Of a stretch of 64,000 bases of DNA, positions 13,849-60,910 are shown one piece after another (within the stretch, counting starts at the first letter, position 1; each line of letters begins with the position of its first letter). The notes beneath the pieces were generated by a model. That model had not been told where the DNA came from and did not search any database. It saw only the letters and a program-made list of their open reading frames with translations. The stretch is from a virus. A program made the translations under genes and the position numbers. The DNA is taken from positions 2,925 through 66,924 of the IMG/VR virus record IMGVR_UViG_3300033463_000109, one strand, 5' to 3'.

Positions 13849-15432
13849 TTAATTATAATAATTTATATTAGTATTTTTTATCAAATAAAATGGTACATTT
13901 ATATTATCAATTTCTTTTGTTATACTTTCATAAGCATCATAAGATGGAACTGTTGCTGGTAAAGTGCTTGTGTAATCAAATGTTCCTTCTTTATAATATA
14001 CTTTATGACTTCCCGTTGCTGTTCCAGGCTCATTTGAAACATAACCATAATAGCCATAAGAAACAGCTGATATATCGCCAGTAATGTCTGATTTACTAAA
14101 TACTGGAGTATAGCCTTTAACACCTAAGCTTCTATAATCTTCACCATTTAATGTGGTGCCATTAATTGTTAAAGCCTTTATAAATGTTCCATTTTTAGCA
14201 TTCCATTTAGCTGGCCCAATATATACTTTGTCTTGTGAATGACAAAAACCTATTTCATCATCAGTCACTGAATATTCTCTGCGATCAGTTGCTGCTGAAT
14301 TTTCGACATCTCCTGACATCCAATTAGTTAAATTAAATCTATGGCACCAATTATTTAAATCAGTGTTGTAATATAAATTAATTACTGAAAAGTTGTCACT
14401 TTTGCCATTACTAAAGCCAAACAATAAACCTCTTGATTTAGTGCTACCAACTTGTGGAATTTCCACATTAAATGTGCCGCCAATTTTTACTCCATTTACG
14501 GCAGCCATTGCATTACTTCCTATTTCTCCAATAAGAGCACCAATTCTGCCATAAGCATTACCATTGCCACTCTGGCCATCAGCTCTATTTACATTAAAAA
14601 TACCACTACCAGTAGCTGTAATATTTGTTAAGGTAATACTACCAGTAGCTTCACCTACAAATGCACCACAACACAAATAGCAATCTCTATTGTCTGTTGC
14701 TCAACCAGGTCTTGTTGTTTTAATAGCTAATCTATTCAATACTTCAACTGTAGTATTAATAATCGATCCACCTAACATCTGTCCTGTAATTCCGCCTAAA
14801 TTACAATGTTTACCTGATGTAACCATAGCTTCTACAAAGTTATTTGAGCAATTAAATTTAACATAAATATTTGAGACTGTTCCGGCATTAATTCTACCAA
14901 CTAAAACTCCACAACCAAATGACTGTTTTAATCAGTTACTTCCACTTGTATTATAATAGCGTGCAGTAGAATAATAAGTTAAATTTTTTACAGCACTTCC
15001 TGTATACATTTCTCTTATTAAGCCACCATAGTACCTTAAACCAGAATCTCTATCATCATTATAGCCATCTGTATTAGCTGTTATTGTATGTCCACAACCA
15101 TCTAAAATACCATTTAGATAGTTATCATTAGTGTAAGTAATCGCTGTTGCAATATTAGCAGTTAAATAGCCATATTTACCGGTATTATCACTACCTAAGA
15201 AGTTTTGTAGCTCGCTATCATTAGAAATAGCTACAGCAGTATAACCTGTTGTGTCTGGTACATAGCCTTTAGGCACATCTCCATCTTTTAAGCCGTCTCC
15301 TAGTGCGGCATAAGAAATAGCAAAATCACCACTTGGTATCTCAGCATAGTTTAGTGGGTCATAATTAGCAAAAGCTGTTTTGCCTGCTATATAAACACTT
15401 GCACCTTCTCTTCCATTAATATAAAATGACAT
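13849..15432 (-). CDS. tail-fibre/structural protein with two in-frame TGA (Trp) codons
   Basis: ORF-track pieces 13849..14676 and 14932..15432 share one frame. In-frame TGA at 14932-34 and 14701-03, no other stops between. TAA stop at 13849-51. RBS 'aaggaag' before ATG 15430-32. Confidence 0.6.
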
Positions 15433-15455
15433 TAAATATTATCTTCCTTTATTTA

Positions 15456-16820
15456 TTAAACAACAGGTGTTGCATCTGTTAAATCTATAATTTGAATAGC
15501 ATTTTGCTTACCATTCCATGTTGCTTTTTCTGTTGCATTTGTAAACTTAGCGGTTGTGCTTGTATCTGAAATATCGTCAGCATCTAAGACAACTGTTCCT
15601 GTTGCTCCATTAACTGAATCAACAGCACCACTTCCTGAAGCACTAATTGTATAAGCACCAGCAGATCCTGTAATAGAAACACCTGTGCCAGCAGCTAATG
15701 ATAAGCTCTCTGATGAACCTAAAGCTGTGCCATCAATAGTAATAGGTCTCCATGTATTAGAATCATTTTCTGTATGAACTACATCATAAATAATACTTGG
15801 TGTTAAAGCATCACAAACTAAAATATCACCTACATGCACTGTTTCTGTGCTGTAAGAAAATTGTGCACTTGCTCTTGCTCAATCGCCTGTCTTTGTTGGT
15901 GCTAATGCAGCTAATTCTGTAGCATCAGCAACAACACCTAAATATTGAACGTGGTTAGTTAAAATAGTGTCAACTTGAGCTTTTGAATAAACTGTTATAT
16001 CACTGCCAGAAGCATTAGCAATAGCACCAGAAGATTGGTTTACTCCTGCTTTTAATGTAACAACCCCGGTAGAAGAATCTAAAGAAGCTATTGTGGCAGA
16101 GCCATCAGTAAACTTGGCTTCATAAGTAGAAGCAGCAGTTGAAGTTGTTAGATAGCTTGAAGCATCTGACAATTCAGCAACTGTTGTTGGTACTGTTGGC
16201 TTATTTTTAATAAAGTCTTTCTTTGTGTTATCAGCTTGATTCCAGTCGCTTTGAATTTGAGCATCTGGAATAGCTGGCTTGTCATCTAAGCTTGTATAGC
16301 TATTAGATAAAGCTACAGCAGCTAAGTCTGTTGACTTTGTATAGTTAGCTAAGTCGTCTACATTTTTTGTAATAAAGCCACTTAAATCTGGTTTATTCTT
16401 AATAAAATCTAATTTTGTATTGTCAGCTTGATTATAATCAGCTTGAATTTGAGCAGCTGGAATTGATGGCTTATTAGTTAAGTCATCATAGTCTCCACTT
16501 GTAGCAACATTAGCTAATGTAGGAGCTCCAGATAAGTCTGAATATGCACCGGTAGTAGCAACATCTGCTAAAGAAGCTGTTGGTGTATAATCAGCTAAAT
16601 CTGTTTTTGTAGCAACTACTGTCTCATCAATACTAATTTCATCATTGGTTATATCAATACCATTACCAGCAGTATAAGGAACGCCAGGCACAGCTGAACC
16701 AGGCACACCTAAGATAGTGTGATTTTGTAGTATATTCTCACTATCTAAGTCAGGCTCATAAATAGCTTGACCTTGTGAGTTTGTTAATATTTTATTATCT
16801 ACTGAAATATACTTTCCCAT
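15456..16820 (-). CDS. tail-fibre protein with internal repeats and one in-frame TGA
   Basis: Pieces 15456..15839 and 15879..16820 are in the same frame and separated only by TGA at 15879-81. Repeats 'NQADNTK(L/K)DFIKNKP'. TAA stop. RBS before ATG 16818-20. Confidence 0.6.
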
Positions 16821-16833
16821 TAGTTATCTCCTT

Positions 16834-18306
16834 TTATGCTACTGACGCCGGTGCTTCTACCATGAAATCTGCAACATTTGACCAGTGTGAATCACTTTGT
16901 CATACGCTAAGCATACCATATGGCACAATAATCTTGAAATCAAAACTATTGTATTGATTATCAATAAAATATCCAGACCATGTGCTATCACTTGGTTGAG
17001 GCACTGATGTGCATTTACTAAAGTCTAATTCAACAATACTTGGAGCGTATTGCATAATAACATATGTTTGATTACCACTAGATGGCTCATAATATCCTGA
17101 AATAGTGCTGATATTAGAAAATTTAACTTTAGTTAATCTTGATGGTCTACCATTATTATATGAATTACCTATTAATGCGCCAGCAGGGAAAGTGGTTACC
17201 ATAGTGTTTGAAAAGTCTAATTCAGTGTCATTAATATAATTTAATAAATTTGAATAAGATGACATTGAAGAGCCGAAACTTACAAAACCATTAGGGAAAT
17301 AAATTTTCTTTTCTGCCATGCTTAATGCTGATGGCATGCCTATGCTTGTGACACCAGTAGGAATTACTAAATTTTCCATACGTGTCGAATATGCTATTTG
17401 TTCAGGTATTGTTGTTAAACTATCTGATAAAGTAAAATTACCCATTTGAATATAAACACCTTCACCACCAATTAATGAATTTACACTTGTAAGATCATAA
17501 TTAAGCACTACATATTTTAATTGGCTGCTATATAGTAATCCGCCTCCGCCCATATCAGAAGTTGGTAAATAACAGTTTTGTGGTAAAATAAATGATTCTA
17601 ATGCTACACCACCATAGAAGAAACTAGTGCTTAATTTAGCTGTTGTTGTGTTATCAATAGAACAATGTTTTAATGATCCACAATATGTTAATTCCATAGA
17701 ACCACTGCTCATAGAATCACCACCAATATGTCCGCTATAAATATCAGCTTCTATAATGTTTTGGCCACCAACACAATAACCTAATTGAATTAAGCCTGAA
17801 ACTTTGACAGTATATTCACCAACACTAGCGTATAAGTGTGAATATTCTTGACCTGATGATGTAATTGATGTAGTATCTCCATCGCCCCAATCAATATAAT
17901 TGCTACTTCCTGGGCTTGTAATATTCACTACACGTACACCAAATTGATTAAAATATGATGAAGTAGCAGCAGATTGGCCTAAACGGCTAATTTTAATTTT
18001 AAAAGTAGTAATTGGATCATTTAAAATATAAGTAGCCCCGATAACCACATTAGTTTTACCAACTGTAAGTGTATTACCATTATTTAATTGCTTTGGCGAA
18101 ATCCAGCAATCAAATGTTCTATCACTATGTGTTGGAGCCGTTGGCAATGTATAAGTATCACCTTCATTCTTTTTAACTTGCTCAATTATAGAACCATCAT
18201 AGTCTATAACTGTAATTGTATAATCACCTGTGGCACCACCAGCTAATGGAATAGTTGTTCCATTATAAGTAACTGCTGTAATTGTTTTACTAGTATCTAA
18301 ACTCAT
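16834..18306 (-). CDS. tail-fibre-like structural protein (C-terminus read through TGA 16900-02)
   Basis: 468-aa ORF ends at TGA. The same frame continues 22 codons to TAA at 16834-36. Confidence 0.5.
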
Positions 18307-18326
18307 TTTTATTTATACTCCTTCTT

Positions 18327-18599
18327 CTATACATCTGTAATTGCTAACGTTTGTGTATCACCACTAATTGTAGCTATAATATTATATTCTTCGCCAGCAC
18401 TTGGTGCATCAGTAATAGTTAATGTACAAGTATCTCCTGTTATTGTTTGTAAGATATAATATGTTGAACCACCACCGGATGGAATGCTTAAAATTTCGCT
18501 TGGAAAATCTTGTGGATTAATAAGAGCTGATGTTCCCTTCTTTGCTCTTATAGCATCTGCAATAGCCTCAAATAAATCTGCTAAATTTGTATAACTCAT
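18327..18599 (-). CDS. hypothetical small protein
   Basis: 90-aa ORF. Confidence 0.3.
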   Translation of the reverse strand: MSYTNLADLFEAIADAIRAKKGTSALINPQDFPSEILSIPSGGGSTYYILQTITGDTCTLTITDAPSAGEEYNIIATISGDTQTLAITDV

Positions 18600-18612
18600 T
18601 ATTTAAGCCTCC

Positions 18613-20838
18613 TTAAACAGGTGTATTCATTACAGTGCCTATTGCATCTTGTAAATCTTTTAATGTTGCTAATGTATAAGCACTTCCATTTACAACCCTC
18701 TTTATATCACCTATTGCTGCTTGTGAATAAGCTAGCATAAAGAATTGATAGTCCTCTGTTGGTACTCCATCTACTACCATGCCTAAACGTAGCCTATCAT
18801 ACATATCATCATTTAAAATACGTGGGCTATATGGAGACATAGGATCATATACACCAAATGTATGACTATTTTCTGCTAGTGTAGTGCCATTCCATACAGT
18901 AATATCATCTACTATAGTACTATTCTGTCCTATTATGTTTACACCCATTGCAAAAGTATCTGTAGTAGATAATAATCTTAGTTTAACAGCTCTATCTATA
19001 GCTTCATAATTTTCTATATACAATACATATTGCCAATACTTTGTTGGATTTGGATCACCTGGCCCTTGATTAGGCACTGATATACTAAATATATTTAAAT
19101 ATCTATTAGCAGAGTTATTTGGGTCAGTTTGTATCTCCATCCCATAATAATTTATCATATTGTTTAAGTATGTAGCTGTATTTTTACTTAAATTATAGTA
19201 AATAGAGCCTGTAAAAGCTTGGCTATAATTATTTCAAGTAAGAAGTGTTTCTTCTCCTTCAGTATCTGCAATCTTATAATATTTACCATTATTTTGTAAT
19301 AAAGCTGGTGTAATTTCTTCTACTGTTTCAATTGGAGAATCAGAACTTCCGCCGCCTTCACCAAGTTTATACTTCTTAGCTACATAATTATATGAATAGC
19401 TATCAAAATCAATATATACTATGTATTTATCAAAATCTGTATAAGAACTTGCGCCTGATGTATTTTGATCAACAAAATGACCTATATAAATATAATGATA
19501 TTTATATGTAAATGTGCTTTGATCATAAAGCTCATAATAATTAGCATATGTTGTATATAAATTTAAGTTAGTAAAATATAATGGAAGTTTAGCTTGTATA
19601 TACGAGCCAAAATTACAATAGGTTTCTGTATCATATGTTAAATTATATGATGTAGTATTTACACCTGAAGTAAAAGCCTCTCTAACTGCATTTACACTTG
19701 GAACATTTGTTGTTGAACTTGATTGTAAGTTATTTGATCTACTTGAAGTAGAAATATAACTACTTAAATCAGACGAATGTGTTATACCATTTAAAGCACA
19801 AGATCCGTAATAACCTGCAGTAGAACCTGTATTATTTGTTGTATAGCCATAATATATTGTATCAAAACTTGTTGATCCACCTATACAATATCAATGCCAA
19901 TATGTTGTACTGTGCATATTTACAAATAACAACACCGCTCCCGTATTTGGAATTGTTACAGTTGATGTGCTATTCTTACCATTATAATAAATAGATTTTT
20001 GTCCACCATATGTTAATTTATAAACACCAGGTGTTAATGTTGTAATTCTAATAGGTGATGTTGAAATTTCTGTTATACCTTCTGGAATAGTTGGTGTATC
20101 TGTTAAGTTGTTATAACTACCTGTTGTAGCAACTGTAGCAAGGTCTGATTTCAATGGAACTGTTGTATTATCAATACCGATTTCATTATTAGAAATACTA
20201 ATACCTGTTCCAGCAGTATAATTACCACCTGCATTTTGAATAGCATCATATACACCACCTGAAGTTACTAAGTTTGTGCTATTTTCTGTTGGCTCAGTAT
20301 CAATACTCTTAGCACCACCAGATGTAGTATCTTGTGTTGTAAAATTAGCAACACCATTTTGCACAATAGAAACGCCATTTAATTGGACATCTCTTGTAGC
20401 AGTAAATGTTGTTGTATTATCATTATTATCTGTTAGAGTTAAAGTATTTGTTTGGCTGTCTACAGCAGCTGCCTTGATATATTGTGAAATAGCCGAACCA
20501 GAGCCACCAAATTTTATCCATTCGTAAGTGCCTGACTCAATATATTTACCCCAAACATATTCATCTCCACATTCTTCTTGGCCTGATGTTCCAGTATATT
20601 TAACTGTATAGCAAAAGCCCACATTCTTAGCTTTTTGTGCCTCAGTCCAAGCAGAGCTCATTGCAGTTAAATCAGCATAATAATCAACAGCACCTTTATA
20701 TTTGATGCCATTTCCTAAGCCATCTACTTTCTCATTTAACTCGGCAATTTCAGCTAGGGCTAAATTTGCTTTTTCTAAAGCCTCTGCCCCTTCACCGCCT
20801 GCTGCTTTCTTAGCTAATATATATGCAACTATATCCAT
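18613..20838 (-). CDS. large tail-fibre protein with in-frame TGAs
   Basis: Pieces 18613..19158 and 19891..20838 are in the same frame. In-frame TGA at 19891-93 and 19234-36. TAA stop at 18613-15. Confidence 0.5.
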
Positions 20839-21583
20839 CTTCTACTAGCCTCCTTATTAGCCTAATTTAATCCATTGCTTATTTTCTGCATCAAAAATAT
20901 AAACTGTGCATGTATCCATCTCAAGCAAAACAGATCCATTACCAACGCCTTCAGTTGGCTTTGCATCTGTGCTTAGGCAATAATACTCATAAGTTTGTTC
21001 ATTGAAAGGTGTAATCATCTGTATAATTCTCCTTAATTTCAAGAATTTAGTCTTTCTAACTAATTAATTTAGCAGATTTATAAGCATAATAAAATAAAAG
21101 AGAGCCTCAAAAAGCTCTCTTTTTAGCATTAGTTTAATTTTGCCAGATTATATGCAAATTTTGCCAAGTACTACTAATAATACTATTATACCAATAGTGC
21201 CTATGTAAAATAAAACGTCTTCTTTATTCATCTGCTTGCTCAACAGTGTCTTCTTCAGGTGGTATATCTTCATCACCTTCAATATATGTATAAATGTTAG
21301 GTATGTCTATTGCATCTATATACTTATCACCTGTTTCATTTTGAATGATATACTTATTAGCATCACTATAAGTATGAACAAATTCATTTCCTTCAATTTC
21401 TATAATTTCTTGAATTAACATATTAACCTCCTACATTGCAAACATAAATGATACATAGTATGTCGTACCTGATTGTATATACGATTCATAAAGTTGTCCA
21501 CCCGAGCCTATACTATTACCTGTCATTTCGTTTACAGTTATGAGTGTTCTTGTCCACCAGGCTGCTCCTGTAGTAGTTCCTGC

Positions 21584-23662
21584 TTTATACTTTGTTCTAT
21601 AAGAATCAGAATTATGACTATTTCAATATGCTAACTTACCTAATATACTGCCAGTTTTATAGCTTATAGTTTCGTTACTATTTGCATTGATTTCTCCATA
21701 AGAGTTTATAAAGATTTTTACAATGGCATCCGAAACACTGCTATCTCCTTGATATTCATGATTAAAATATTTTATCTTAATATTATGTAATTGTGCTTTT
21801 AAGTCACTAGCTAATACATTATATAGTGTGCTATCTACATAAGCTTTAAGTTCTGAATTGCCATAATTTCTACCATAAAGTGGATTATATTTATTACCTG
21901 TTTCTTTGTTAAAGAAATATTCAGCTGTTGTTCCTGTTTGTGCACAATCAAATGTAATATATGTGTACATATCGTTGTCAACATCATAGTATCTACCTTC
22001 TAAGAATTCCATAATTCTTATTGTATAAGTATTACCATCTTCACCTATAGTATCTTTAGTATCTCCAATTTGCCAACCTATATCTTCTGCTATTCTATTT
22101 TCTGCTACATATCTTATTTGTGATCAAGAGTTGTTTGCAAATCCTGTTGTTTCATAAGGGTTATTAACTCCGTCATATACGCTTACAAAGATAGCTAAAC
22201 CTGCAGATGCTGTAACTGTATATGACAATGTTGATGTTATAGTAGTTGAATTAGCTCTGGCTTCGTAAATAACATAACTTGGATCATTTGGTGTATACTG
22301 TATAGTTAATTGAGTTCCTACTGGTATCCAATCACCTTCTTGATACGTATTAATTCCATCTGTAACTTCTACAGAGCAATCTAAACCTTTAAGTGATTTT
22401 AATTTCGTGTGTGTTTGTGATGTAGAGATTTCGCAATAGTAAGGTTCACCTACTATAGCTTCAGTTACTTGTGCACTTGCTGGTAAAGCGCTATTACCTC
22501 TTGTATAGTTAGAATACCAAGTTAATGAATAACCTTCTTCGTTAACAGCAGGTAAAATAGTTGATTCAGCTTCTGGCAACCACCCCTTAATCCAAGAAGC
22601 ATATGAAGACCAATTTGTTTTTACTTTTGCTTCATGTACTTGGTTGTACGGAACGAATAATAACGTGTATTGCATATTATAAAAAACATTAGATTGCGTA
22701 ATATTAGGAACGCTTAAAAACTTTGCTACGTTGTATTGCCAATATCCAAAAGAATATGAACCCGAAACAGTTGCAAGTACTTCAGGTAAAGAAATATCCA
22801 TATACTTAAATCTATAAGAGCTAGAATTCGCACCTATACAATAACTGCTGCCTAGAGTAGTGAATGTAGCATTTGTAAAATCTAAAGTTATTATGCTACT
22901 AGAAGGGGAACTTCTTGAAACACCCAGTTGTCTAAAAGCATGTTGTCCTACAGATGATACTCTACCTTTTAGCTTAAAGCTCGTTGCATAGTCTAAATAA
23001 CCAAAAGCTTGTGTACCTATTAAACCATTGACTTCTATATCAAAAGCACAATAATTATTTCTTATTGAACCAAAAGCATATTCAGCTACTGAACCTAAAA
23101 TACCTGTTACACTTTTTAAGTTTGCACCATTAAATGCATAGCTACCTACGTTGCATTGTTGTGCAAAATGTAGTTCTATTGTCTTATTAGATGTACTACC
23201 ACCTAAAGCATAAAAAGCATATGTGTTTATATTTGTTACTTTAGGTATACTCAAAGATGTACACAACTTACAAGAGCTAAATACATAGCTACCTATACTT
23301 CTACATTCTGGTAATGAAATTGATAAAACAGGGCGAGTACCTCCTTCTATATAATCTAAACTGAATGCACAATTACCTATAGTCTCTACTTTTGGTAATT
23401 CAAAAGTTGCAGGCATAGTAACTCCTTGAAAAGCATATTGACCTATAGTTATACAATTTGGTAATGTAGGAAAAATATTCATTGTACTCTCCCTATAGAA
23501 CATATAAGGTCTAACAGAAGTCCATGTAGATAAATCTAATTGCACATTTGTTAAGCTATTATCATTAACTTGTTTTAAGTAATCATTATCTGGTATGCTT
23601 ACACCGCCACCAGCTCCTGCTAATACTTTTCCATTATATACTACTATCTTTCTATCTGCCAT
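21584..23662 (-). CDS. BspA-type leucine-rich-repeat surface/tail protein with two in-frame TGAs
   Basis: Pieces 22124..23662 and 21623..22012 are in the same frame. TGA at 22124-26 and 21623-25. TAA at 21584-86. Repeats 'IGxxAFxxCxxLxSIxIPKVTxI'. Confidence 0.55.
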
Positions 23663-23667
23663 ATTAT

Positions 23668-24528
23668 TTATTCCTCTATTGCTTCAAATGTTATAGTGCC
23701 ATTATTATAAAGTGTGGATCAGTAGGTAGCCGCCTTATAGCTTTCAATTAAGCTTTCTGGCACATATACAGTTATGCCGGACTTGCCCCAATCAGTGCTA
23801 ACTAAGCTACAAACTGTGCTAGCACCTAATGTAACTGCAGCAAGTTTTGGGCAATTAAGAAATAAGCTTTCACCACTACTAGTATTATTTATTTTAGTTG
23901 CTTTTGGCAAAATAATTGTTTCTAAATTACTACAATAGGCAAAACATTTTCCAACAGTTATGCATTCAGGTAAAGTTAAAGTTTTTAATCCATAATTGCT
24001 TCTAAATGCCGAATTTCCGACTGATGTTACTTTTGGCAAATCATATGAAGATACACTAGAACAACCGCTAAAAGTTTCACTATTTAATGTAGTTAACTTA
24101 GGCAAAGAAATAGTTCCTGATAGTCTATTATCACTTGAAAATGCACCTAAGCCAATATCTGTTAGGCCTGCTGGATTTAAACCTGCTATTGTTTGCAAGT
24201 TTGTACATTGCATAAATGCATATGTGCCGATTGAAGTCAACTTCGGTATGCTAATTTTATAGCCTGTCAAACCAGTGCACCTTGAAAAAGCATAATTTCC
24301 CAATGTTGTAACATTTGGCAAATCAAGCTCAACTAGCTTTGGTAGACGGCATGACCCACCTGAAGCACTGCCTGATAGATTGGCAGTCACTTTAGTTACT
24401 TTATCTGTTTTAATAGAAGTAATACTGCCATCTAAAATACCTGATAAATCTGGAATAACATCTATAGTTGGCGTTCCAATATTACCTGTTAAAACTTTTC
24501 CATTACATGTTACTACTGCTTTACTCAT
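23668..24528 (-). CDS. BspA-type leucine-rich-repeat protein (read through TGA 23719-21)
   Basis: 269-aa ORF with 'LPNVTTLGNYAFSRCTGLT...IPKLTSIGTYAFMQCTNL'. Ends at TGA. The frame continues 16 codons to TAA 23668-70. Confidence 0.5.
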
Positions 24529-24972
24529 CTATATTCCTTCTATTCAGTTAATTGCTTTTGTGCCATATTTTGTAGCTGTGCCTTCAAACCATATAGCATC
24601 ATATTCTTTATTAGGTAGGCCTCTTCTATCTCTTATAGTTTGATACCAATATCTTATAACACTTGGTATTGCTACTATAAATAACTGTAACGGCCCAAAA
24701 ATTATATTTTGTAATGAATGTCCAAATTCATGTCTTCTTGTAGGTTGAAAATAATTTTCTCCTGAGTTCTCTATAAAAGAAATAACCCCTAAATTTAATC
24801 CTCCTCAATTATTTCCTACAACAACTATATAGCTAAATCCATTCTTATAGATAGGGCAACCAGCTAAGCCTAAAATAACTAAGCCAATTAAACCTGGTAT
24901 TGAAAGCAACGCTCCCCAGGTTAATGATAGTATCCAATATAAAATCTTTAATAATGTCTTTTTTATATCCAT
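24529..24972 (-). CDS. small integral membrane protein with in-frame TGAs
   Basis: ATG at 24970-72 with several predicted TM helices. In-frame TGA at 24805-07 and 24544-46. TAG stop 24529-31 directly before the next ATG. Confidence 0.35.
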
Positions 24973-24974
24973 TG

Positions 24975-25784
24975 TTATCCTTCAATCTGAAAGTCTATGT
25001 TTGACAAGTCTATATTAAAAGCTGCTACACAATAACAATATTGGTACGTTGCATCATAGTATGTGTCTATATAGCTGCCAGGGCTATTGCCTGTGCAATA
25101 CATTCAAGCTGCTGTCGAATTTGTTGCTGCAGCTGAACTGAATCGATATACATTAGCATCATCATCAGGTAAATCAAACATATTTTTTTTAATAGCTGTA
25201 GTGCTAATATTATAACTATTATTAAAATATGATACAATATCATCTATGTCTAAAGCAAAGCAATTCAATTCTCCATTTGTCTTTTGTGTCACTTTTGTAT
25301 AATAAATATTCATTTGTGTTGAATCATCATCTACCTGTAGACAAAAAGTCTCACTTCCGCTATGAGTAGTGCTTAGAGTATAACAACTTTGGACCCTATT
25401 AGTAGGTATAATTGCAGCTTTTACATTGGTAGCTAATGTATTATAATAAGTATTATTTAATTTTATTGATAATGTGCTATTTGTATAATCTTGATAATAA
25501 TTACCATTATCAAATTGAGCTGTTTTACTAGTTGTATTAAATGCTGACGCACCAACTTTATTTGATACTTCAAGTAGCTTAGCTACATTACCGCTAATAC
25601 TTAACACTCTAAAACGTATATTTGTGCCATTGGCTAATGCATTAAAGTTAATTATATCTCCTTTAACAGGCATTTTTTTATTAGCAGATCAAACTTCAAC
25701 GTTACCATTATATACCTTTTTAATTTCAGTATTACCATAAAATATTTTCTTTATTTGGTTTGTTCCAAAAAACATTCCTGACAT
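24975..25784 (-). CDS. structural protein with two in-frame TGAs
   Basis: ATG 25782-84 after RBS 'agagagg'. TGA at 25689-91 and 25104-06. TAA at 24975-77. The 25104..25673 track ORF is its central part. Confidence 0.45.
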
Positions 25785-25795
25785 AAAATACCTCT

Positions 25796-27703
25796 CTAGC
25801 CTGAAATTAAATAAATATATCCACTATATCTATTTGAAGGCTCTGAAGATAGATATACAATATGTATACCGCCATCTGATATAGCTGCTGTTGGAGCAGT
25901 TGTTTGTAATGTACACATTGAAGCATCTAGCTTTGAATATATCATATTTTCAACTGATGTATTATTAGTTAGTCTAAACCAACCCAAACCATTAAGTGCT
26001 CAGTATGCTTTACCATCTGCTATTCAAACTCGATTACCTTCTATTTGATTTTGTTGGCCTGTTCCTGGTCAAGTTTTGACATTTCAAGTTAAGGTAGCTT
26101 TATCTAAAACATATTGATTTAAGCCTAATGAGTAATAAAGATTATCTCCATCAGACCAAATGCAGATACCATCAAAGCTTGTTAAACCTGACCATGTTTT
26201 AGTAGATCATGTAGATGTTGATTTATCTAAAATATACTGAGTTGAACTGTTTGAATAATAAATATCTTCTCCGTCTGTTCAAACAGACCTACCATCAAAA
26301 TCTGTTAATCCTGTTCAAGTTTTAGTTGACCAAGTAGATGTTGATTTATCTAAAACATATTGATATGAGCCATATGAATAATAAGTATCAGTGCCGTCAG
26401 TCCATATATACTGACCATCTTCTGGAGTAAGGCCTGTCCAACTCTTAGCTGACCAAGTAGAAGTTGATTTATCTAGCACATATCAGCTTCCTAAAATCCC
26501 ACCAGCTTTAATATAAATATTCTCTCCATCTGTTCAAGCACTTTGACCATCAAGATATGTTGCACCTGTTCAGGTTTTAGCTGACCAAGTAGAAGTTGAT
26601 TTATCAAAAGCATATTGATAAGACATATACGAATAATAAATATTGTCCCCATCTGTTCATACATATTGACCATCGATAGCTGTTAAGCCGCTACTGTCTG
26701 GCATCTTACTTCAATAAGCTTCCATTAGCTTATCTTGCTTCTTTTCTTCAACAGCTTTAGCACTTGGCACTTGGCTCTCTCTTGATAAAGCTGATAACTC
26801 TTGCGTAACGAATGGCCCTTCAAAAGCTAATGTTTTGTCTAGTATATATTGGTCAGAGTCACTTGAATAGTAGATATTATCATTGTCTGATCAAATATCA
26901 CGCTTGTAAAAATCAGTGATACCAGTTCAAGTTTTTGTTTCTCAAGTAGATGTTGACCTGTCTAAAACATATTGAAAATAGCTGCTATTTGAATGATATA
27001 TATTTTTGCCATCAGATCAAATATACTGTCCAAATAAGTTATATAAATCAACATTATCTCCAGCTATTCAAATCTTTTCTTCTCAAGCAGATGTTGTTTT
27101 ATTTAAAATATATTGATCGGCTCCATTTGAATGATAAATATTACCATTGTCTGTTCATATATGTTGACCATAAACATTGTCAAACCCTGTCCAGATTTTT
27201 TGTGACCAAGTAGATGTGGCTTTGTCTAGCACATACTGATTGTTGGGACCAACCGACCAATAGATATTCTCACCATCAGACCAAATACTTTCAGATGTAA
27301 ATTCTGTTAATCCAATCCAAGTTTTTTCAGACCAGGTAGATGTAGCTTTGTCTAAAACATATTGTTCAGAGTTGTTTGAATAATAGATATTATCTCCATC
27401 AGATCAAATATAATCTCCTCTAAAGCTTGTAAATCCTGACCATGTTTTTTCAGACCAAGTAGATGTAGCTTTGTCAAGTACATAGTGAGTTGAGTCAGAA
27501 TAGAAAGTATTATCACCATCAGACCATATAAGTGACCCTGCAAAACCCGTTAATCCTGTTCAAGCTTTTGTTGATCAATTATTTGTATATTGATAATCTT
27601 TTACTGTGTTATCTTGCTTCTCAGCTAATTGTCCAGAAACTTGTGCATCATATTTTTCTTTAAATCTTTGTAGTTGTTCTATCTTAATTACTTCATTAGC
27701 CAT
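25796..27703 (-). CDS. tandem-repeat (~40-aa 'YVLDKSTSTWS...DG.NIYYS' units) structural/receptor-binding-like protein with many in-frame TGA (Trp) codons
   Basis: ATG 27701-03 with RBS 'aaggaaaag'. Same frame as terminal piece 25796..25987. DNA repeat of ~120 nt. No ORFs in the track because of roughly 20 in-frame TGAs. Repeat copies align TGG with TGA. Confidence 0.5.
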
Positions 27704-27725
27704 ATCTTATTCTTTTCCTTTACTA

Positions 27726-28424
27726 TTAATTAAATAAGTTATCTATATCATTATCTGTTGCAAATGTTAATGCATCTTGTTTATTTACTATATTTGCCAC
27801 AGAGATAGAGTTTGTTCCATCAGTTAAATTACGAGATAAGTATAAATCTCTCCATCTATTCTTTCCTGTACCTGTTCCTAAATCAACATTACCAGAACCT
27901 CTATCATAAGGAATAACTTTTGATGCATTTATTTGGACATATGTAAGATTAGTAGGATCACCTAATTCTATATTATTATTTAATCCTAATAATTGAAAAT
28001 CTCCATTAGTCCATCGTCCATAAATATACTTATATCTAGTAATATAAATATTACTATCAAATATCTTTGGACCTGTAATAGTTTGATTTCCATTTAATGT
28101 TACATAGTTACTTAAATCAGGTTGATTTTCCTTAATTACTTCCTCAATATTTTTAGCATCCCATTTAGTATTATCAAAATCTTCTGCTACATTTACTGCT
28201 GTTTTACATTTATATACTTGACCTTCATAAATAACTACATCACCTACTGCATATGTTGAAGTATTATCATATTCTTCAGCAATATTTGTTAAATCGGTTT
28301 TTGTGGCTAACTCAGTCTTATCTGCTTTAGCCTCTATAATGTCGGAAGTGCTAATAGCTGCAGCAGCTTGTGTGTCAGCTATAGTAGCTACCTGTGTATT
28401 TGTACTAAATGATGAATTTGGCAT
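27726..28424 (-). CDS. tail-fibre-like protein
   Basis: 232-aa ORF with TAA stop. Confidence 0.45.
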   Translation of the reverse strand: MPNSSFSTNTQVATIADTQAAAAISTSDIIEAKADKTELATKTDLTNIAEEYDNTSTYAVGDVVIYEGQVYKCKTAVNVAEDFDNTKWDAKNIEEVIKENQPDLSNYVTLNGNQTITGPKIFDSNIYITRYKYIYGRWTNGDFQLLGLNNNIELGDPTNLTYVQINASKVIPYDRGSGNVDLGTGTGKNRWRDLYLSRNLTDGTNSISVANIVNKQDALTFATDNDIDNLFN

Positions 28425-28445
28425 TCTCTATTCTCTCCTTTACTA

Positions 28446-29360
28446 TTACATTACTTGAGCACATCTTAAAATAATTTTTCCATCGCCACTATTTAAATAT
28501 GTTGAAATTTCATATAAGTCTGAACTTTCAGTTACAAAGAATAACCCAGCATATTCAAAGCTTGCATTTCTATTTAATGCTATGCTATGTGATGTGCCAT
28601 CAATTTTAATAGCTATTTTAATAATATCATTTTGAAGTGAATCATAATCATATGGCCAAGCAGAAGGTGTAATGACTAAGTAGTGGTTTGTCTTTAATGA
28701 AGTCCAATCACTTGCACTTACTATCAATGAGCTTGACATGCTAATTAAATCTTTAATAGTAGCACGAGTTGATTTTAAATTGTCTATATCAGTATAAATA
28801 TTACTTAATTTAATTTGGCTCCATTTAGTTGGGTCAAAAGCGCCTGTTTGTGTAGGTGCTTGTATACATCTATAATATAGGCCATTATAATTTACTATAG
28901 CACCCTTAATATATAGAGTATTTATGCTATAAGTAGGAGCTAAAGCAGTTAAAGTCATGTACTCTTGCAATACTTCTAATGCTTTAGTCATATCAGCTGC
29001 TGTTAAAATATCTTGCACAAAACTGTTTAGTATTAGTTTACCATTTACAAGTGTAGCATTTTTAACTGCTGCTGGGAAATCTGCCCAATTATAAGACTTT
29101 TGTGTAAATATTTCTTGACATTTAGCTAACGTTGGCTCTGAACCAGCACCATACATACGTGTTAAGTTTATAATCTTAAGGTAGTTTGTAGTAAATGCTA
29201 AGCCAGTATAGTTCCACATAACAATTTCATCTATATCTTGTGTTAATATTAATAGACTTTCTTTATTAGCTTCTATGAGTTCTAAATACTGTATTGTTGT
29301 TCCAGCTGCTTTAAGTGTAATACGCTCATTAACATTGTAAGAATTATTAGCATTAGGCAT
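28446..29360 (-). CDS. structural protein
   Basis: 304-aa ORF. An in-frame TAA at 29391-93 bounds it upstream. Confidence 0.45.
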   Translation of the reverse strand: MPNANNSYNVNERITLKAAGTTIQYLELIEANKESLLILTQDIDEIVMWNYTGLAFTTNYLKIINLTRMYGAGSEPTLAKCQEIFTQKSYNWADFPAAVKNATLVNGKLILNSFVQDILTAADMTKALEVLQEYMTLTALAPTYSINTLYIKGAIVNYNGLYYRCIQAPTQTGAFDPTKWSQIKLSNIYTDIDNLKSTRATIKDLISMSSSLIVSASDWTSLKTNHYLVITPSAWPYDYDSLQNDIIKIAIKIDGTSHSIALNRNASFEYAGLFFVTESSDLYEISTYLNSGDGKIILRCAQVM

Positions 29361-29393
29361 AGCATATGAAATATAAAGTATGTCGCCAGCTTT

Positions 29394-32300
29394 ATAATCT
29401 AATGAACTACCAGATATAGTAGCAACATCACCTACAGTATTTGCCCAAGTATATTCACCAATATATGTATTTGTTACTGCTTGTGAAAAGTTTACATCGA
29501 TAATACTAGCCTTATCTACTTTTGTAGCTAAAGCATCATATACACCACCAGAGGTTACTAAGTTTTCACTATCTTCTGTTGGCTCATCTTCAATAGATAA
29601 TAAGTCTGCTTCACTTGACGGTAAACTAATCTTACCTGTGTTGTCAACTGAATAAGCTGTTCCGTCAATTTCAATACTTGTTGCTGCATTTACATTAACA
29701 TTTTTATTTACAATAGCTAATGGTGTACCATTTAAATCTATTGTATCTATTTTACCACCAGCTAAATCTATTAATTGTAGAATACTAATTGCTGTCCATT
29801 TTAATGGATCAAAATCTTCTGCAACTGTAATTGCTGTTATACATTTATATAAAGTATTATTATAAATTACTACATCATTAACATTATAAGTTGCTGTATT
29901 ATCATAAGTATCTGTAATATCTGTATAATTTACTTTACCTGCTAATGCATTTTCTACATCACCAAAGCTATCTATTGCTGTGCCATCTTTAATATTTGTT
30001 ATTTCAGAAGATAGCTCACCTGATTTCTCATCTAAAAGAATTTCAGCTGCAGTTGCTCTAGCTGTTTCAGCACTTATAGCACCATGTAATGTAGCTTCTT
30101 CATTAGTTGTTAAAAACCATCTCTTAGCTTGTGGAGGTTCTGCACCACTATAAGCTAATACTTCTAGTGATGTATTTGTAAATGCTGCCCAACCAAAGAT
30201 ATATAAAACATTTTTTCAGTCTGCTGGTGCATACCAAGCACTTTCATCTGTAGCCTCAATCTCTTTAGTTGTGCCTATAGCATAGATTAAAGTCAATTTC
30301 TTTTGGTTATCTTCAATAGCAGTATCAGCTAGTATAGTATCCAAGCTAGCTACTAAGTTAGTATAAGCATCTTTCTTATTAGACCATTCATTTGCTCTAA
30401 TTTGTGTGTCAGTTAATGAGGTACGTCTATCTATAAGTTTTACATACTTAGTCGTTTCATCTACAATACTATTATATTCTACTCAGATGCTACCTATTAC
30501 TTCATGTTGTTCTTCCAAGTCTAGATCTGTAGTTATATCTTCTTGACAAACTTCAACAAATAAATCTAAGTCTGTTTTTAAATTTGCAGATGATGTTCTG
30601 CTATCAAAATATATACTATGAGAAGTATATGCAATATTTAATATGCCATCAAATGTAGCATCATTATAGAATTCAGCTTTATTTGATTGATATTTACCAT
30701 CAATACCTAAACCAATAATTGTGCCTAACTTATTACTATTTATTGTAATATTAGATGGAGTTGATGGTGGATATTCATAACAAGTAGAGCCTTTACCATT
30801 TCCAGCATTATGTTCCCAGCCAGCTCTTACCTTAACATCACCATTTGTTGTATAATAGCTTTGTCCTGTTGGTTGTGTTGCAATATCATACTTATTAAAG
30901 CCTGTATTGTTATTTGTTGAATAATTTAATATTCTATTTGCTTGCTGTGATGTCTTATTAGGATTTGTTTGAATGCTTGATAGCTTATTAGCTGTAAGCT
31001 TTAAGTCATTATAAACATTTATTGTTGTGAAAGGAACTAATGTCATTGTTCCCTCTTGACTTATAGGTTGTGGCTGTTGTGTAAATTCTATTTTGTAAAT
31101 ATAATTATTTCTAAATTGTCCACTATCTTGACCTGTATATCTAATATAATAGCCATTATAATTTGAAGTAATATAGTTATTTATTTCAGCTGGATTGCTT
31201 ACATTAATGAAGGCTTCTTTTTCTAATTGGTCTTGAACAGCCTTTGTAGTTGGAGCATTATTATTATTTATATTTCCGGCTTGACCCTTAGTAAATGAAA
31301 CTTCAAAACCTTGCGGAGTAGCTGTAATAATACCATCAACTTCAACAATAGTCTTTAAGTAGCTTCCATCTTGTCCTACATTTGCTGTATTTAACGCTGC
31401 AATTTTTGTATCTGTATATGTTTTTGCAGCTAATGTTGTAGGCGCATTATTATCTGTTGGTGTCTCAAAGTTGGTATCAAATGCTTTTGTATGTGAATGA
31501 GCAATACCATCAGTTTCAGTAATATAATCTACATACTCACCATTTGTTGTTGATTCAGCTGTATTATCTAAAGCAGCAATAGCTGAGCTTACTGTGCTTT
31601 CAGTAGCTAGCTTGTTAGTGCTTGCATTATAAGTGCCATCTACAGCAAAGTCTACATTTTTATCTTGGTCAATTGGTAGCTTTGTCTTATCACCATTAAT
31701 TGATAGCGTATCAATTTTACCACCTTCTGTTTTTACATAGTTTTCGGTAGCAAGTTGATTATTATAAGCAGCATCATCTGGAAGAATATCTCCGGCATCT
31801 ACTAATGTGTGATTAGTATCATCCCATACAACAAGTTGACCATCAACTAAAGCACCTCTTGTAGCGATTTTTTGGCCTTGATTTGTATCAAAGTCAAACT
31901 CTCCATCAATATATTTGCCTTCGCCTAACATCAAAGCATTTTCTACAGGGTCATATAAGCCAACACCTTCTGCTTTAGCTACATAATATTGACGTCCTTG
32001 TGTAAATGTTAATGAATCATCTAATTTATATTTATTTGTTTCATATTCATAATAATATGTGTCAGGCTTATAATCTTGCTCTAACAAAGCATATTCAGCA
32101 TATTCGCCTGTAAGAGCCACTACACCTGTTAAATCAGTTAATGGTGCATTTGTACTATTAGTAACTAATAAATTAGATTTAGCTTGAATAGTTTCTTGGT
32201 CAACAGTAGTAGTTGTGCCCTTAACAGTTAAGTCTCCCATAACTGTTGTATTATTTTTAGCCGTTAAGTTTCCTTGACCATCTACTGCTATTGCTGTATC

Positions 32301-32549
32301 AAACGTATCAAGTCTGCTATCTAAAGCACTTTCTGCTGCTCTTGCTGTTTCTGCTTCTTGAGCTAAATCTAGTGATAAAGCCCTTTCAGCAGCCTTTGCT
32401 CTAGCCTCTTCGTCGTCCACATCAGCTACTCTATTAGCTTCTTCAGTATCTATTCTATTTTTTACATCATTATTAAGCTTATTAAGAACCTTATCTGATT
32501 CTTGTTTATAAAGCTTTAATTCTTCTAATGATACTATTTTATCACTCAT
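29394..32549 (-). CDS. giant tail-fibre protein. The 30483..32549 portion is secure; the extension to ~29394 through TGA codons is likely.
   Basis: The 688-aa ORF ends at TGA 30483-85. The same frame stays open for at least 30 further codons. No M-initiated ORF is listed for 29361-30482, which fits multiple TGAs. Nearest in-frame TAA is at 29391-93. Confidence 0.35.
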
Positions 32550-42606: not shown

Positions 42607-42682
42607 TGGCAGGCCTGAAACGACTCGAACGCCCATCTCGCGAATTTGGAGTTCGCTGTTTTACCAATTAAACTACAGACCT
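42607..42682 (-). tRNA. tRNA-Trp (CCA)
   Basis: Anticodon arm 'GCGAA CTCCAAA TTCGC'. Acceptor AGGTCTG/CAGGCCT. The T-stem has G-U pairs. Confidence 0.6.
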
Positions 42683-44429: not shown

Positions 44430-44463
44430 AAACTATATTTTTGTTTTTATAATAATTATTTGC

Positions 44464-48727: not shown

Positions 48728-48827
48728 TGGCGATCCTAAGGAGACTCGAACTCCTACAAAAGCGATTTCGTCTTCCGGCTGACAACCGGGCGTTTTAACC
48801 ATTTAAACTATAGGACCATATTAAAAA
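48728..48827 (-). tRNA. tRNA-Asp (GTC) with long variable arm
   Basis: Acceptor GGTCCTA/TAGGATC. Anticodon arm 'CCGG TTGTCAG CCGG'. Extra-arm hairpin 'GACGAAATCGC'. T-arm 'AGGAG TTCGAGT CTCCT'. CCA encoded. Confidence 0.55.
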
Positions 48828-50185: not shown

Positions 50186-50530
50186 TTATTTTTTGTTTTG
50201 TAAACTGTTTTTGCAAAAAAATATCGACTTTTTTAGGGTCGATATTATCTGCTTCTATTTTTAGGATGAAAAAGTAAATAATATCTACCCGATAGATACC
50301 TCTTGTTCTGCTTTCGCATTATCTTGATTCTTCATAATAAATATTTTTAGCATTTTCTTCCTTCGCAATAGCATTTTCGCTATGCACTATAATTTAGCGT
50401 TAATATCTAAACCATTTTTTTATTTTTTTGCTTACACTATATTATACGCTATTTTTTTCAAATTTTCAATTTTTTTGAAAAATATTTTTTATCTATTATA
50501 ATTTACTGTTATGCTACCTTGACCATTTTC

Positions 50531-51208
50531 TCAGTTAGCAGCTTTTTGCATAGCATTCCAATTAGCTTGTGAGCTTGCATAGTCAATAGTTTGCGTTGTG
50601 TTTCTCGCTGGCATAAATGCGCCTGTGCCAATGCTTTCAAGTGTGCTTGGTAGATGGAAAGTAGTCTTGCCAGTAATACTTGCAAAAGCTCCATCACAGA
50701 TATATGTATAACCTTCTGGCACATAGACATTATTGCTACCTAAGCCAAACCAAACAGATCCTAAATCTATACTTAGTGGTTGGTCTATACCTATAATTGG
50801 ATATTCAACACCATTCACTGATAAAGCTGTTGGTAAATATACTGTGCTTCCAAAGAAAGCTAAAGCACCTGAATTAGAGGTTGTAAACTCTGTTAATACT
50901 AAGTCTCCATTTTCATTTGGCTCAATAGTAATGCTTACATCGCCTCTATCATAAGTATCATTTCCATTTACTGTTACTATTTCACCTTCAACTACTTCGT
51001 CATTTACAATAACTTGGCCTGATTCATCTACAACAATTAAAGTTCCAGGTGTAACTACAGGGTCAGTGTTTTCGAATACTCAGCTTAATACTACAGTGCT
51101 TATAGTTCTATTTAGCTCAACTTGAGGCATAAAAGTCCAAGCGGCATAAGATGTCCCTATTATTAAAATAAATATAAGTACAATAATAAATGCTATACTA
51201 CGCTTCAT
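50531..51208 (-). CDS. secreted protein with SipW-cognate-type signal peptide ('SYAAWTF') and BspA-like repeat. One in-frame TGA.
   Basis: ATG 51206-08 gives 'MKRSIAFIIVLIFILIIGTSYAAWTFMPQ'. In-frame TGA near 51080-82. The C-terminal 95 aa match the track ORF 50531..50818. Confidence 0.45.
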
Positions 51209-51953
51209 ATTGAATCTGTCTTAAATAATCTAATCTTTTTTTATTTACCTTATTGAATTGATAGCTAGCGAACTCAGAATTAATTATTACAGAAGCAATA
51301 GCAATAAAAGACCATATACCTAAATATGACTTTAAGTATAAAACAAAACTACCTATACCTTCTATTTTTCTTCCAGTATAGTGATAAATAATATTATCTC
51401 TCTTAACAAGCTTTCCTGAATACTTATAATCAGAGATAGCATTAGCATCCCCTTTGAATTCATAGCCTGTAGAATATATATTAATTAATCTATGGGTGAT
51501 TATTGTATTGTTATTCTTATAGCCGTAGACTTCGCCTTCTATCAGCTCTGTTTCTTGCTCTACACGCTCAAAGATGCAGATGTCGCCTATGTTAAATTGT
51601 AGGCTATCATCATATATCTCTTCATCATAATTTTTTGACATTGAGCCCGTTTTAATAACAAGTATTGTCTTGCCATCTATTTCTAAATCTTTATTCTGCA
51701 CTTTGAATACTATTCCTGCTGTGAATAAAGCTATAACAAATGCTAACAAAATATATGAGAATATAGAAAGAAGTATTTGTAATTTTTTCTTCTTTGCTGT
51801 ATATTCTGCATATATCTCTTTGTCATGCTTACCTTGATCAACCTCAGCTTTATATGCCTTCAAGCAATAATAGTAAGCTGCTCAAGATAATACAAAAATT
51901 ATAATTGTTAGAACAATAACTACGACTATCGTAATAATCGTAATTGGATTCAT
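51198..51953 (-). CDS. signal peptidase I, SipW-like (S26 family)
   Basis: 'VIKTGSMSKNY' carries the catalytic Ser. 'GDICIF' and 'IITHRLI' carry the His. True start is ATG 51951-53 with an N-terminal TM helix, reached through in-frame TGA 51882-84. Confidence 0.55.
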
Positions 51954-52768: not shown

Positions 52769-52863
52769 GAGGGGCTGCAGGATTCGAACCCGCGCCACTG
52801 AGTGTGGACCTCAGTCTTTCTACGGTTTTGAGGACCGCTGTACTACCGTTATACGAAGCCCCT
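52769..52863 (-). tRNA. suppressor tRNA, anticodon UCA (reads UGA), class II (long variable arm), CCA not encoded
   Basis: Reverse complement 'AGGGGCT TC GTA TAACGGTAG TAC A GCGGT CCTCAAA ACCGT AGAAAGACTGAGGTCCACACTCAGTGGC GCGGG TTCGAAT CCTGC AGCCCCT C'. Perfect 7-bp acceptor. Anticodon 34-36 = TCA, with C33 instead of the usual U33. Confidence 0.6.
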
Positions 52864-60469: not shown

Positions 60470-60487
60470 TACTCATTCTCCTTTTTT

Positions 60488-60883: not shown

Positions 60884-60910
60884 AATTATACCTTCTTTCT
60901 AATAAATCCA

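Follow-up and report, generated by a model that had tools for sequence, protein, structure and literature searches.

We describe a transfer RNA (tRNA) gene with anticodon UCA, here termed tRNA(UCA), in a 64,000-nt stretch of viral DNA (IMG/VR record IMGVR_UViG_3300033463_000109, positions 2,925 to 66,924; hereafter, the window). The source phage infects gut or rumen bacteria. The gene is 95 nt long and lies on the minus strand at positions 52769 to 52863. Between its D arm and its T arm are two hairpins, namely, an anticodon arm (arm 1), whose loop carries UCA, and an extra arm (arm 2), whose loop carries CCA. On balance, the best overall explanation is that this tRNA decodes UGA and inserts tryptophan, and that the duplicated arm 2 has most likely been kept as a display of CCA for tryptophanyl-tRNA synthetase (TrpRS).

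A tRNA(UCA) gene with an extra arm

A search of the whole window with Rfam gave a full-length match to RF00005 (model positions 1 to 71) at 52769..52863 (-), with 49.1 bits (E value, 1.8e-7) against the gathering score of 29 bits that a tRNA cloverleaf must reach. The alignment took CCUCAAA as the anticodon loop, placing UCA in a 7-nt loop on a 5-bp stem, as in an opal decoder. It treated 25 nt on the 3' side of the anticodon arm as an insertion in the variable region, which is 28 nt long in all. The minus strand reads AGGGGCU UC GUAU AACGGUA GUAC A GCGGU CCUCAAA ACCGU from the acceptor to arm 1 and AGAAAG ACUGAG GUCCACA CUCAGU GGC GCGGG UUCGAAU CCUGC AGCCCCU C from the following linker to the discriminator (C73). 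The same five-helix cloverleaf is the minimum-energy structure according to RNAfold (-33.8 kcal/mol; z = -2.5). Furthermore, the 400-nt region around the gene was 100% identical in 4 assemblies from different samples (ERZ27257207, JGI 3300028797, SRR10393135, and SRR10393136), so the locus is not an assembly artifact. The gene is thus confirmed as real.

The original prediction, which a model had made from the letters alone, was of a 95-nt minus-strand cloverleaf with anticodon UCA, located outside the main tRNA island. The covariance model and the fold agree with it, down to the 7-bp acceptor, the anticodon arm, the long extra arm, and the T arm, and the position outside the island was borne out. 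The second tRNA finder suggested as a check gave a different answer: ARAGORN did not call the gene at 52769-52863 with default settings, and its calls with lowered thresholds, i.e., Val(aac) or Leu(caa) with an "intron," were discarded, since they disrupt helices that show covariation in the family described below. A promoter and terminator scan around tRNA(UCA) found nothing; TATAAT repeats upstream and an AT-rich hairpin with a T-run downstream are visible by eye and are not counted as evidence.

TGA as a tryptophan codon

The window has a G+C content of 34%, and nearly all of its genes are on the minus strand. Stop codons of the 62 predicted genes were TAA (52 genes) or TAG (10 genes), and none required TGA, which occurred in frame 43 times (TGG, 198 times). 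Because all 62 genes end with TAA or TAG and 43 TGA codons stand in frame, the phage needs a UGA decoder. When TGA was read as a sense codon, many open reading frames (ORFs) fused in the block at about 13.8 to 32.5 kb. In-frame TGA was limited to this structural/tail-fiber-like block and to two genes at 50.5 to 52.0 kb (Table 1), and replication genes (e.g., DnaB) and nucleotide-metabolism genes had none. This distribution is the pattern published for "Agate" phages from cattle and pig guts, in which TGA is recoded to Trp in late genes (bioRxiv 10.1101/2021.08.26.457843).

Most of the in-frame TGA codons stand at conserved Trp positions. The gene at 25796-27703 (-) holds 22 of the 43 and uses TGA (22 codons) more often than TGG (17 codons). 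Its 635-aa product consists of about 11 repeats of about 41 residues (..QYVLDKATSTWSEKTWSG....IWSDGDNIYYS..), in which TGA alternates with TGG in three conserved Trp columns (STWSEKTW versus STxETKTx). TGA is therefore found in frame at Trp sites and never as a stop, i.e., it is used as Trp in the window genes. Neither Rfam nor a hairpin scan revealed a second UCA tRNA in the window plus 10 kb beyond its start (about 76 kb). Two island tRNAs found only by Rfam were ruled out as suppressors, as they are tRNA-Gly(GCC) and tRNA-Phe(GAA). The reassignment of TGA and the decoder role that had been proposed for tRNA(UCA) are thus supported by the absence of TGA stops, the in-frame TGA codons, and the presence of a single UCA tRNA in these 76 kb.

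A family of two-arm tRNAs

Related genes were sought in IMG/VR with a pattern consisting of GGTCTTCAAAACC, 22 to 40 unspecified bases, and GGTTCGA, which left the extra arm unconstrained. This family scan returned 81 loci in four groups, including 40 distinct Trp-like tRNAs with G73 and a 7-bp acceptor stem (class A), 15 genuine tRNAs for selenocysteine (tRNA-Sec; group B), and 3 tRNAs with another acceptor stem (group C); locus L120 was the one class A-like exception without the hairpin. In this unbiased set, UCCA was present in the variable region of 39 of the 40 class A tRNAs and 1 of the 15 tRNA-Sec (Fisher test, p = 5e-11). The addition of a syntenic orthologue, further scans, and split genes resulted in 52 distinct two-arm sequences from viral, metagenome, and genome contigs.

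Both G73 and the arm 1 loop CUUCAAA were found in 51 of these 52 sequences, and UCA was always in arm 1; because CUUCAAA occupies the same place in 51 relatives, the anticodon register of the window gene is fixed. The extra arm has a stem of 4 to 8 bp (most commonly 5 bp), a 5' linker of mostly 4 to 6 nt, and a 3' linker of mostly 3 to 4 nt. Its commonest loops were CUCCAAA (21 sequences), GUCCAAA (16 sequences), and UUCCAAC (3 sequences), and UCCA was kept in 51 of 52. The window loop, GUCCACA, follows the family pattern N-U-C-C-A-A-A, which is that of a tRNA-Trp anticodon loop, in retaining U-C-C-A and departs from it in having C for A at the sixth position.

The helix of arm 2 is supported by covariation. 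In 41 distinct loop-anchored 17-mers, 94.1% of the helix cells were paired, compared with 53.0% in shuffles, and there were 89 two-sided changes (24 in shuffles), with all five pairs changed on both sides. The covariation score was 1.08 versus 0.26 (0 of 500 shuffles as high; slid controls, <=0.25). Over all five helices of 27 full-length sequences, the paired fraction was 97.6% (shuffles, 74.5%) and the covariation score was 0.62 (shuffles, 0.16; 0 of 500 as high), the acceptor helix being 100% paired and covarying. The extra arm (helix 4) was 91 to 94% paired, and the window sequence aligned readily, with the five helices and an arm within the covarying 4- to 8-bp class of the family. That UCCA has stayed fixed while the stem around it has changed at all five pairs points to selection acting on the loop sequence rather than to drift.

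The syntenic orthologue (L062:11619-11713) lies beside a phosphoesterase gene whose product is 62% identical to its neighbor in the window. It was found through a protein database and contig look-ups; an IMG/VR search with the neighboring phosphoesterase yielded no relative. Its 5' part is AGGGGAU ... AUCGU CUUCAAA ACGAU CUA, and its 3' part is ACCAG GUCCAAA CUGGU GAA CCGAG UUCGACU CUUGG AUCCCCU G CCA. The orthologue thus encodes CCA and has U33 and G73. The stem of its arm 2 is wholly different from that of the window gene, while the loop, GUCCAAA, is nearly the same and corresponds to the anticodon loop of tRNA-Trp. Neither the tRNA(UCA) locus nor 11.5 kb of the window found a match among GenBank phages. 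Two-arm genes were also detected in metagenome-assembled genome (MAG) contigs labeled Coriobacteriia, Treponema, and Bacilli, which are probably phage DNA binned with bacteria. At the loci of relatives, ORFs merged by TGA outnumbered those merged by TAG (52 versus 8), which suggests recoding there too but carries little weight, the tRNA-Sec control loci being GC-rich and not comparable.

With the same anticodon-arm and T-loop motifs, tRNA(UCA) with a single arm was found at 18 loci, compared with about 40 distinct two-arm genes. Loci L090, L117, and L148 have long-arm tRNA(UCA) of a third kind, with the acceptor GCCCCAG/CUGGGGC, discriminator U, and an extra-arm loop that likewise contains CCA (AUCCA or AACCA).

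Decoding arm and origin of the second arm

A reciprocal scan was constrained solely in arm 2 (GTCTCCAAAAC) and on the 3' side of arm 1 and recovered 23 distinct genes. Fourteen were intact, with the arm 1 loop CUUCAAA, and nine were split by an insert of 186 to 629 nt between U34 and C35, the joined exons again giving CUUCAAA. Arm 1 therefore carried UCA in 23 of 23 genes. It begins one nucleotide after the D arm, as the anticodon arm does in all tRNAs, and arm 2 occupies the position of a class II variable arm; Rfam and ARAGORN alike take arm 1 as the anticodon arm. On these grounds, we assign decoding to arm 1, although the opposite topology is compatible with sequence alone. In that arrangement, arm 2 would be the true anticodon arm of a tRNA-Trp(CCA) reading UGG and arm 1 would be inserted at 26/27, or, in a variant, both arms would be used on the ribosome. 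Such a topology would be in keeping with the fact that the segment from arm 2 through the 3- to 4-nt linker and the T arm to the 3' acceptor strand is colinear with the 3' two-thirds of canonical tRNA-Trp genes, and with the sub-threshold Rfam alignment of one split gene, which picked arm 2. An arm in the variable region is a known tRNA topology, and we know of no insertion at 26/27. Given the spacing of arm 1 from the D arm, the 23 unbiased cases of UCA, the choice made by both programs, the intron-like insert at 34/35 of arm 1, and the need of the phage for a UGA decoder, we regard decoding by arm 2 as highly improbable.

Comparison with known tRNA-Trp genes bears on the origin of the second arm. 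A consensus two-arm member was not covered to >=80% by any record of the GenBank phage collection (50,697 records). Its nt 50 to 96 (arm 2 to the 3' end) resembled the 3' two-thirds of tRNA-Trp from Erwinia, Proteus, and Caulobacter phages (83 to 89% identity), and its nt 6 to 40 (D arm and arm 1) resembled the 5' half of Bacillus phage tRNA-Trp genes (91 to 94% identity). Because tRNA-Trp genes match the two halves separately, the comparison points to a tRNA-Trp whose anticodon arm was duplicated in tandem and in which C34 of the first copy would have changed to U. Canonical tRNA-Trp(CCA) was present at 10 of the loci, often directly adjoining, with the loop CUCCAAA in 10 of 10.

The nine split genes are at L151-L157, L159, and L160, on IMG/VR contigs of 100 to 178 kb (e.g., L156:11004-11213 and L151, reverse complement of 533-1138). 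Their 5' exon ends with U, the insert ends with G, and the 3' 180 nt of the insert are conserved; long forms contain a 153-aa ORF, with in-frame TGA in some copies. These features recall a group I intron that carries a homing endonuclease, comparable to the case of cyanobacterial tRNA-Leu(UAA). We do not claim this identity, and Rfam found no Intron_gpI match in the inserts at the gathering score or at E <= 10.

Tryptophan identity of the tRNA

The window anticodon arm (xCGGU-C.UCAAA-ACCGx) is of the type that we take to be that of bacterial tRNA-Trp, as in the Escherichia coli sequence. Identity elements for bacterial TrpRS are G73, C34, C35, A36, A1-U72, and G2 to G5 in the first acceptor pairs (PMC9976931). 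The window gene has all of the acceptor elements (A1-U72, G2-C71, G3-C70, G4-C69, and G5-C68 in AGGGGCU/AGCCCCU) and lacks G73, having C73 instead, although G73 is present in 51 of the 52 family sequences and in the phage's own tRNA-Trp(CCA). Arm 1 reads U34 C35 A36, with C34 lost; an intact U-CCA is present in the loop of arm 2. Judged by sequence, the body of tRNA(UCA) is of the tRNA-Trp type. TrpRS is the expected charging enzyme because of the Trp-type acceptor, the Trp-like anticodon arm, the G73 and CCA of relatives, and the conserved CCA arm. The same features displace the original suggestion that a long variable arm of the Ser/Leu/Tyr/Sec kind leaves the choice of synthetase open.

A class II or Sec-type tRNA, charged by seryl-, leucyl-, or tyrosyl-tRNA synthetase (SerRS, LeuRS, or TyrRS) or carrying Sec, would make UGA a Ser, Leu, Tyr, or Sec codon. 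The long variable arm recalls such tRNAs, SerRS also favors the G73 and G2-C71 of the relatives, and ARAGORN labels these relatives "tRNA-SeC(tca)." Typical tRNA-Sec (selC) has a 13-bp acceptor plus T branch (8/5 in bacteria), a 6-bp D stem, and a 4-nt D loop. The window tRNA has a 7/5 branch, a 4-bp D stem, and a 7-nt D loop, and the genuine tRNA-Sec recovered in the same scan differ from the two-arm tRNAs. Nor does the molecule fit Ser (G73) or Leu and Tyr (A73), having C73. In Ser, Leu, and Tyr tRNAs, it is the size or orientation of the variable arm that matters, not its loop sequence (PMC9976931), whereas the extra-arm loop here is conserved as CCA, which no class II synthetase needs. Because of the stem lengths, the conservation of the loop, and the occurrence of TGA in conserved Trp columns, we rejected the Sec and the Ser/Leu/Tyr readings, which are hardly credible.

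The window copy as a family outlier

Four features of the window copy depart from the family, in which U33 in arm 1, G73, and usually CCA are found. It has C33 rather than U33, C73 rather than G73, and C rather than A at position 6 of the arm 2 loop, and it encodes no CCA, which is encoded by 26 of the 29 window tRNAs. The original prediction had recorded the missing CCA correctly and had named C33 and C73 as marks of an unusual suppressor; both are real and are peculiar to this copy, not to the family. A TrpRS that depends on G73 would presumably recognize a tRNA with C73 less well. C33 recurs in the two-arm genes L195 and L198 and in the single-arm UCA genes L016:6120-6190 and L049:2896-2968, which, with the window gene, makes at least 5 phage tRNA(UCA) genes, spread over both architectures and otherwise intact, that have the C33 loop CCUCAAA. 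Because of this recurrence, C33 is tolerated in UGA decoders and is perhaps favored.

These deviations raise the question of whether the copy is decaying or weak, with UGA being read by another suppressor elsewhere in the genome or by near-cognate tRNA-Trp(CCA). Its C33 and C73 differ from 51 relatives, it lacks the CCA of most window tRNAs, and about 9 kb of the 84.7-kb contig, together with any further genome, lies outside the sequence that was read. We nevertheless argue that the window gene works, since its helices are all intact, it is identical in four samples, and the phage has 43 in-frame TGA codons with no other UCA tRNA in about 76 kb. With C33 also recurring in otherwise intact suppressors, decay of this copy is distinctly improbable.

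When IMG/VR was scanned for C33 combined with a long arm, nothing was recovered except odd 3' tRNA fragments beside tRNA-Ser. At L054-L057 (IMG/VR 3300045988; e.g., L055:7022-7080), a 3' tRNA fragment (TCCTCAAAACCG...GGTTCGAATCCCTGTCCTTCCGC) immediately follows a complete tRNA-Ser(UGA), precedes tRNA-Trp(CCA), and could be a remnant or a split gene.

Role of arm 2

In the explanation that we favor, a tRNA of Trp identity would read UGA through the UCA of arm 1 and would allow the TGA-bearing late (structural) genes to be translated in a standard-code host. The arms would follow one another as D arm, arm 1 (UCA), a 4- to 6-nt linker, arm 2 (C/GUCCAAA loop), a 3- to 4-nt linker, and T arm, such that identity (CCA in arm 2) would be physically apart from decoding (UCA in arm 1). 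C34 is missing from arm 1, a loss for which arm 2 may compensate by offering an intact CCA to TrpRS. Arm 2 would have been kept to show the enzyme the cognate element lost at position 34 and would improve either charging or competition with host tRNA-Trp. This specific role, that of a "decoy anticodon" which uncouples identity from decoding, is a credible candidate that we put forward tentatively. Several observations weigh against it. We infer the contact between TrpRS and arm 2 from sequence only. Thirteen phage tRNA(UCA), for which the one- or two-arm type is unspecified, all inserted Trp in an E. coli extract (PMC12636597); since such suppressors are Trp-charged by E. coli enzymes, the decoy arm is not strictly required, and single-arm tRNA(UCA) exists in phages too, at the 18 loci recovered with the same motifs. 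The tRNA-Val and tRNA-Asp of this phage have extra arms with loops (GAAA and UCGC) unlike their anticodons, and extra arms may have another or an additional role. Moreover, many of the 52 two-arm sequences are related, and the counts given above are of cells, not of independent events. Finally, the four conserved points at which the window copy deviates (C33, C73, no CCA, and C at "37" of arm 2) could mean reduced function.

If arm 2 were a neutral or structural relic of duplication, charging by TrpRS would depend solely on C35-A36 of arm 1, the acceptor stem, and the discriminator. The single-arm genes, the insertion of Trp by the tested suppressors, and the extra arms without anticodon-like loops in tRNA-Val and tRNA-Asp are all consistent with a relic, which we consider unlikely in view of a stem changed on both sides at five pairs around a U-C-C-A kept in 51 of 52 sequences and of the excess of two-arm over single-arm genes (about 40 to 18) with the same motif. 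The loop may instead be read by a partner other than TrpRS, such as a T-box specifier (UGG), an enzyme modifying anticodon loops, a phage factor, or an anticodon nuclease for which it would be a decoy. The loop is under apparent selection, and anticodon-arm mimics that proteins recognize are known in mRNAs, e.g., the thrS operator (PMC9976931). Such a partner is quite unlikely, as the rest of the molecule keeps the full acceptor identity set for TrpRS, which is the known protein reading CCA in tRNA-Trp (PMC9976931), and no candidate factor gene was found beside tRNA(UCA). Display of CCA to TrpRS thus remains the explanation that we favor for arm 2.

Table 1. Parts of the tRNA(UCA) gene and related features of the window
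Feature	Position	Strand	Basis or remark
Whole tRNA(UCA) gene, 95 nt including C73, no encoded CCA	52769..52863	-	Rfam, minimum-energy fold, 4 assemblies
Acceptor 5' strand AGGGGCU, pairs with 52770-52776 (AGCCCCU)	52857..52863	-	A1-U72, G2-G5:C68-C71
D arm GUAU-AACGGUA-GUAC	52840..52854	-	Rfam alignment, minimum-energy fold, family covariation
Arm 1, decoding anticodon arm (as concluded) GCGGU-CCUCAAA-ACCGU	52822..52838	-	UCA at 52831..52829, C33 at 52832; Rfam alignment
5' linker AGAAAG, arm 1 to arm 2	52816..52821	-	Family linkers 0-9 nt, usually 4-6
Arm 2, extra arm ACUGAG-GUCCACA-CUCAGU, 6-bp hairpin	52797..52815	-	Loop CCA at 52807..52805; covariation
3' linker GGC, equivalent to short variable loop of canonical tRNA-Trp	52794..52796	-	Family and GenBank comparison
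T arm GCGGG-UUCGAAU-CCUGC	52777..52793	-	Rfam alignment, family covariation
Discriminator C73 (family consensus G73)	52769..52769	-	Sequence; G in 51/52
Canonical phage tRNA-Trp(CCA), loop CUCCAAA, G73, encoded CCA	42607..42682	-	ARAGORN; comparison for arm 2
Structural, tail-fiber-like gene block	13849..32549	-	37/43 in-frame TGA codons
Two genes downstream of tRNA(UCA) in the direction of transcription	50489..51953	-	3 in-frame TGA

Other tRNAs and neighboring genes

Rfam detected 29 tRNAs in the window. ARAGORN with default settings missed three of them, namely, tRNA-Gly(GCC) (42772-42842), tRNA-Phe(GAA) (44561-44638), and the UCA suppressor (52769-52863), while Rfam at the gathering score missed tRNA-Ser(UGA) (44342-44431) and the L062 orthologue. 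The canonical tRNA-Trp(CCA) that had been predicted is present (Table 1). Isotypes Val, Asp, and Pro are normally without a variable arm. In the window, the 88-nt tRNA-Val(UAC) (44724-44811) has a short extra arm with the loop GAAA, the 90-nt tRNA-Asp(GUC) (48728-48817) has one with the loop UCGC, and tRNA-Pro(UGG) (42926-43006) has a 10-nt variable loop.

A cluster of genes related to nicotinamide adenine dinucleotide (NAD) occupies about 58630-63972 (-) and is also found at L058:416-5758 and L062:1042-7649. It encodes NAD synthase, a CTP_transf_like nucleotidyltransferase, an isochorismatase/nicotinamidase, and a NUDIX protein, with NAPRTase in a relative and NADAR nearby, and it resembles phage modules for NAD salvage or reconstitution. 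Beside the tRNA arrays of the large phages L016, L160, and L151 are ROOL RNAs (L016:6693-7289 and L160:7618-8177) and a transfer-messenger RNA (tmRNA; L151:7986-8409).

Comparison with known systems

Phage opal suppressors and TGA-to-Trp recoding are already known. Within the full-text literature that can be searched, outside of which are subscription journals and supplementary tables, we found no tRNA-Trp, or any other tRNA, with a conserved second cognate anticodon arm; the two-arm architecture is apparently both undescribed and widespread, occurring in dozens of uncultured phages. A change of anticodon damages charging, and reassignment is therefore hard where the synthetase reads the anticodon. 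If our explanation is true, a spare cognate arm together with a mutated decoding arm would be a new natural route around this obstacle, may help explain how UGA is imposed as Trp on standard-code hosts without a phage TrpRS, and would give synthetic biologists a principle, that of portable identity arms, for building efficient or tunable suppressors. The suppressor tRNAs of recoded phages are probably undercounted, as ARAGORN with default settings missed the window copy and labels its relatives "SeC."

The closest known cases are the opal suppressors of "Agate" and "Jade" phages (bioRxiv 10.1101/2021.08.26.457843; PMC12636597). Like the window phage, these are low-GC phages of animal gut or rumen in which TGA means Trp mainly in structural/late genes and replication genes are TGA free, and they have their own tRNA(UCA) and presumably rely on the host TrpRS. 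The reports mention no extra arm, whereas the window tRNA has a second, conserved CCA arm, as well as C33 and C73.

The tRNA-Trp(UCA) of Mycoplasma, Spiroplasma, and mitochondria (genetic code 4) is an ordinary class I tRNA with which TrpRS has co-evolved. It shares the anticodon of the phage tRNA and the meaning of UGA as Trp, but the phage decoder, with its additional CCA arm, has to function in a host that uses the standard code. Class II tRNAs (Ser, Leu, and Tyr) and tRNA-Sec likewise have a long helical arm between the anticodon arm and the T arm; the two-arm tRNA differs from them in its Trp-type acceptor, 7/5 branch, 4-bp D stem, linkers of 4 to 6 nt (5') and 3 to 4 nt (3'), and conserved loop.

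Two further systems resemble the proposed role of arm 2. The nematode V-arm tRNAs (nev-tRNAs) are charged with Leu against their anticodon by means of a Leu-type arm (PMC4300185). They too place a variable arm on a tRNA with an anticodon of a class I family and set identity away from the anticodon, but the loop of the phage arm repeats that of the cognate anticodon arm, and the amino acid fits the new meaning of the codon. Mimics of anticodon arms that synthetases read are known from the E. coli thrS operator and from the yeast mRNA for aspartyl-tRNA synthetase (AspRS) (PMC9976931). As in arm 2, a stem-loop copies the cognate anticodon loop, and it is recognized by the rules of tRNA identity. 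Those mimics lie in mRNA leaders and regulate translation, whereas the phage copy, whose candidate reader is TrpRS, lies inside a tRNA.

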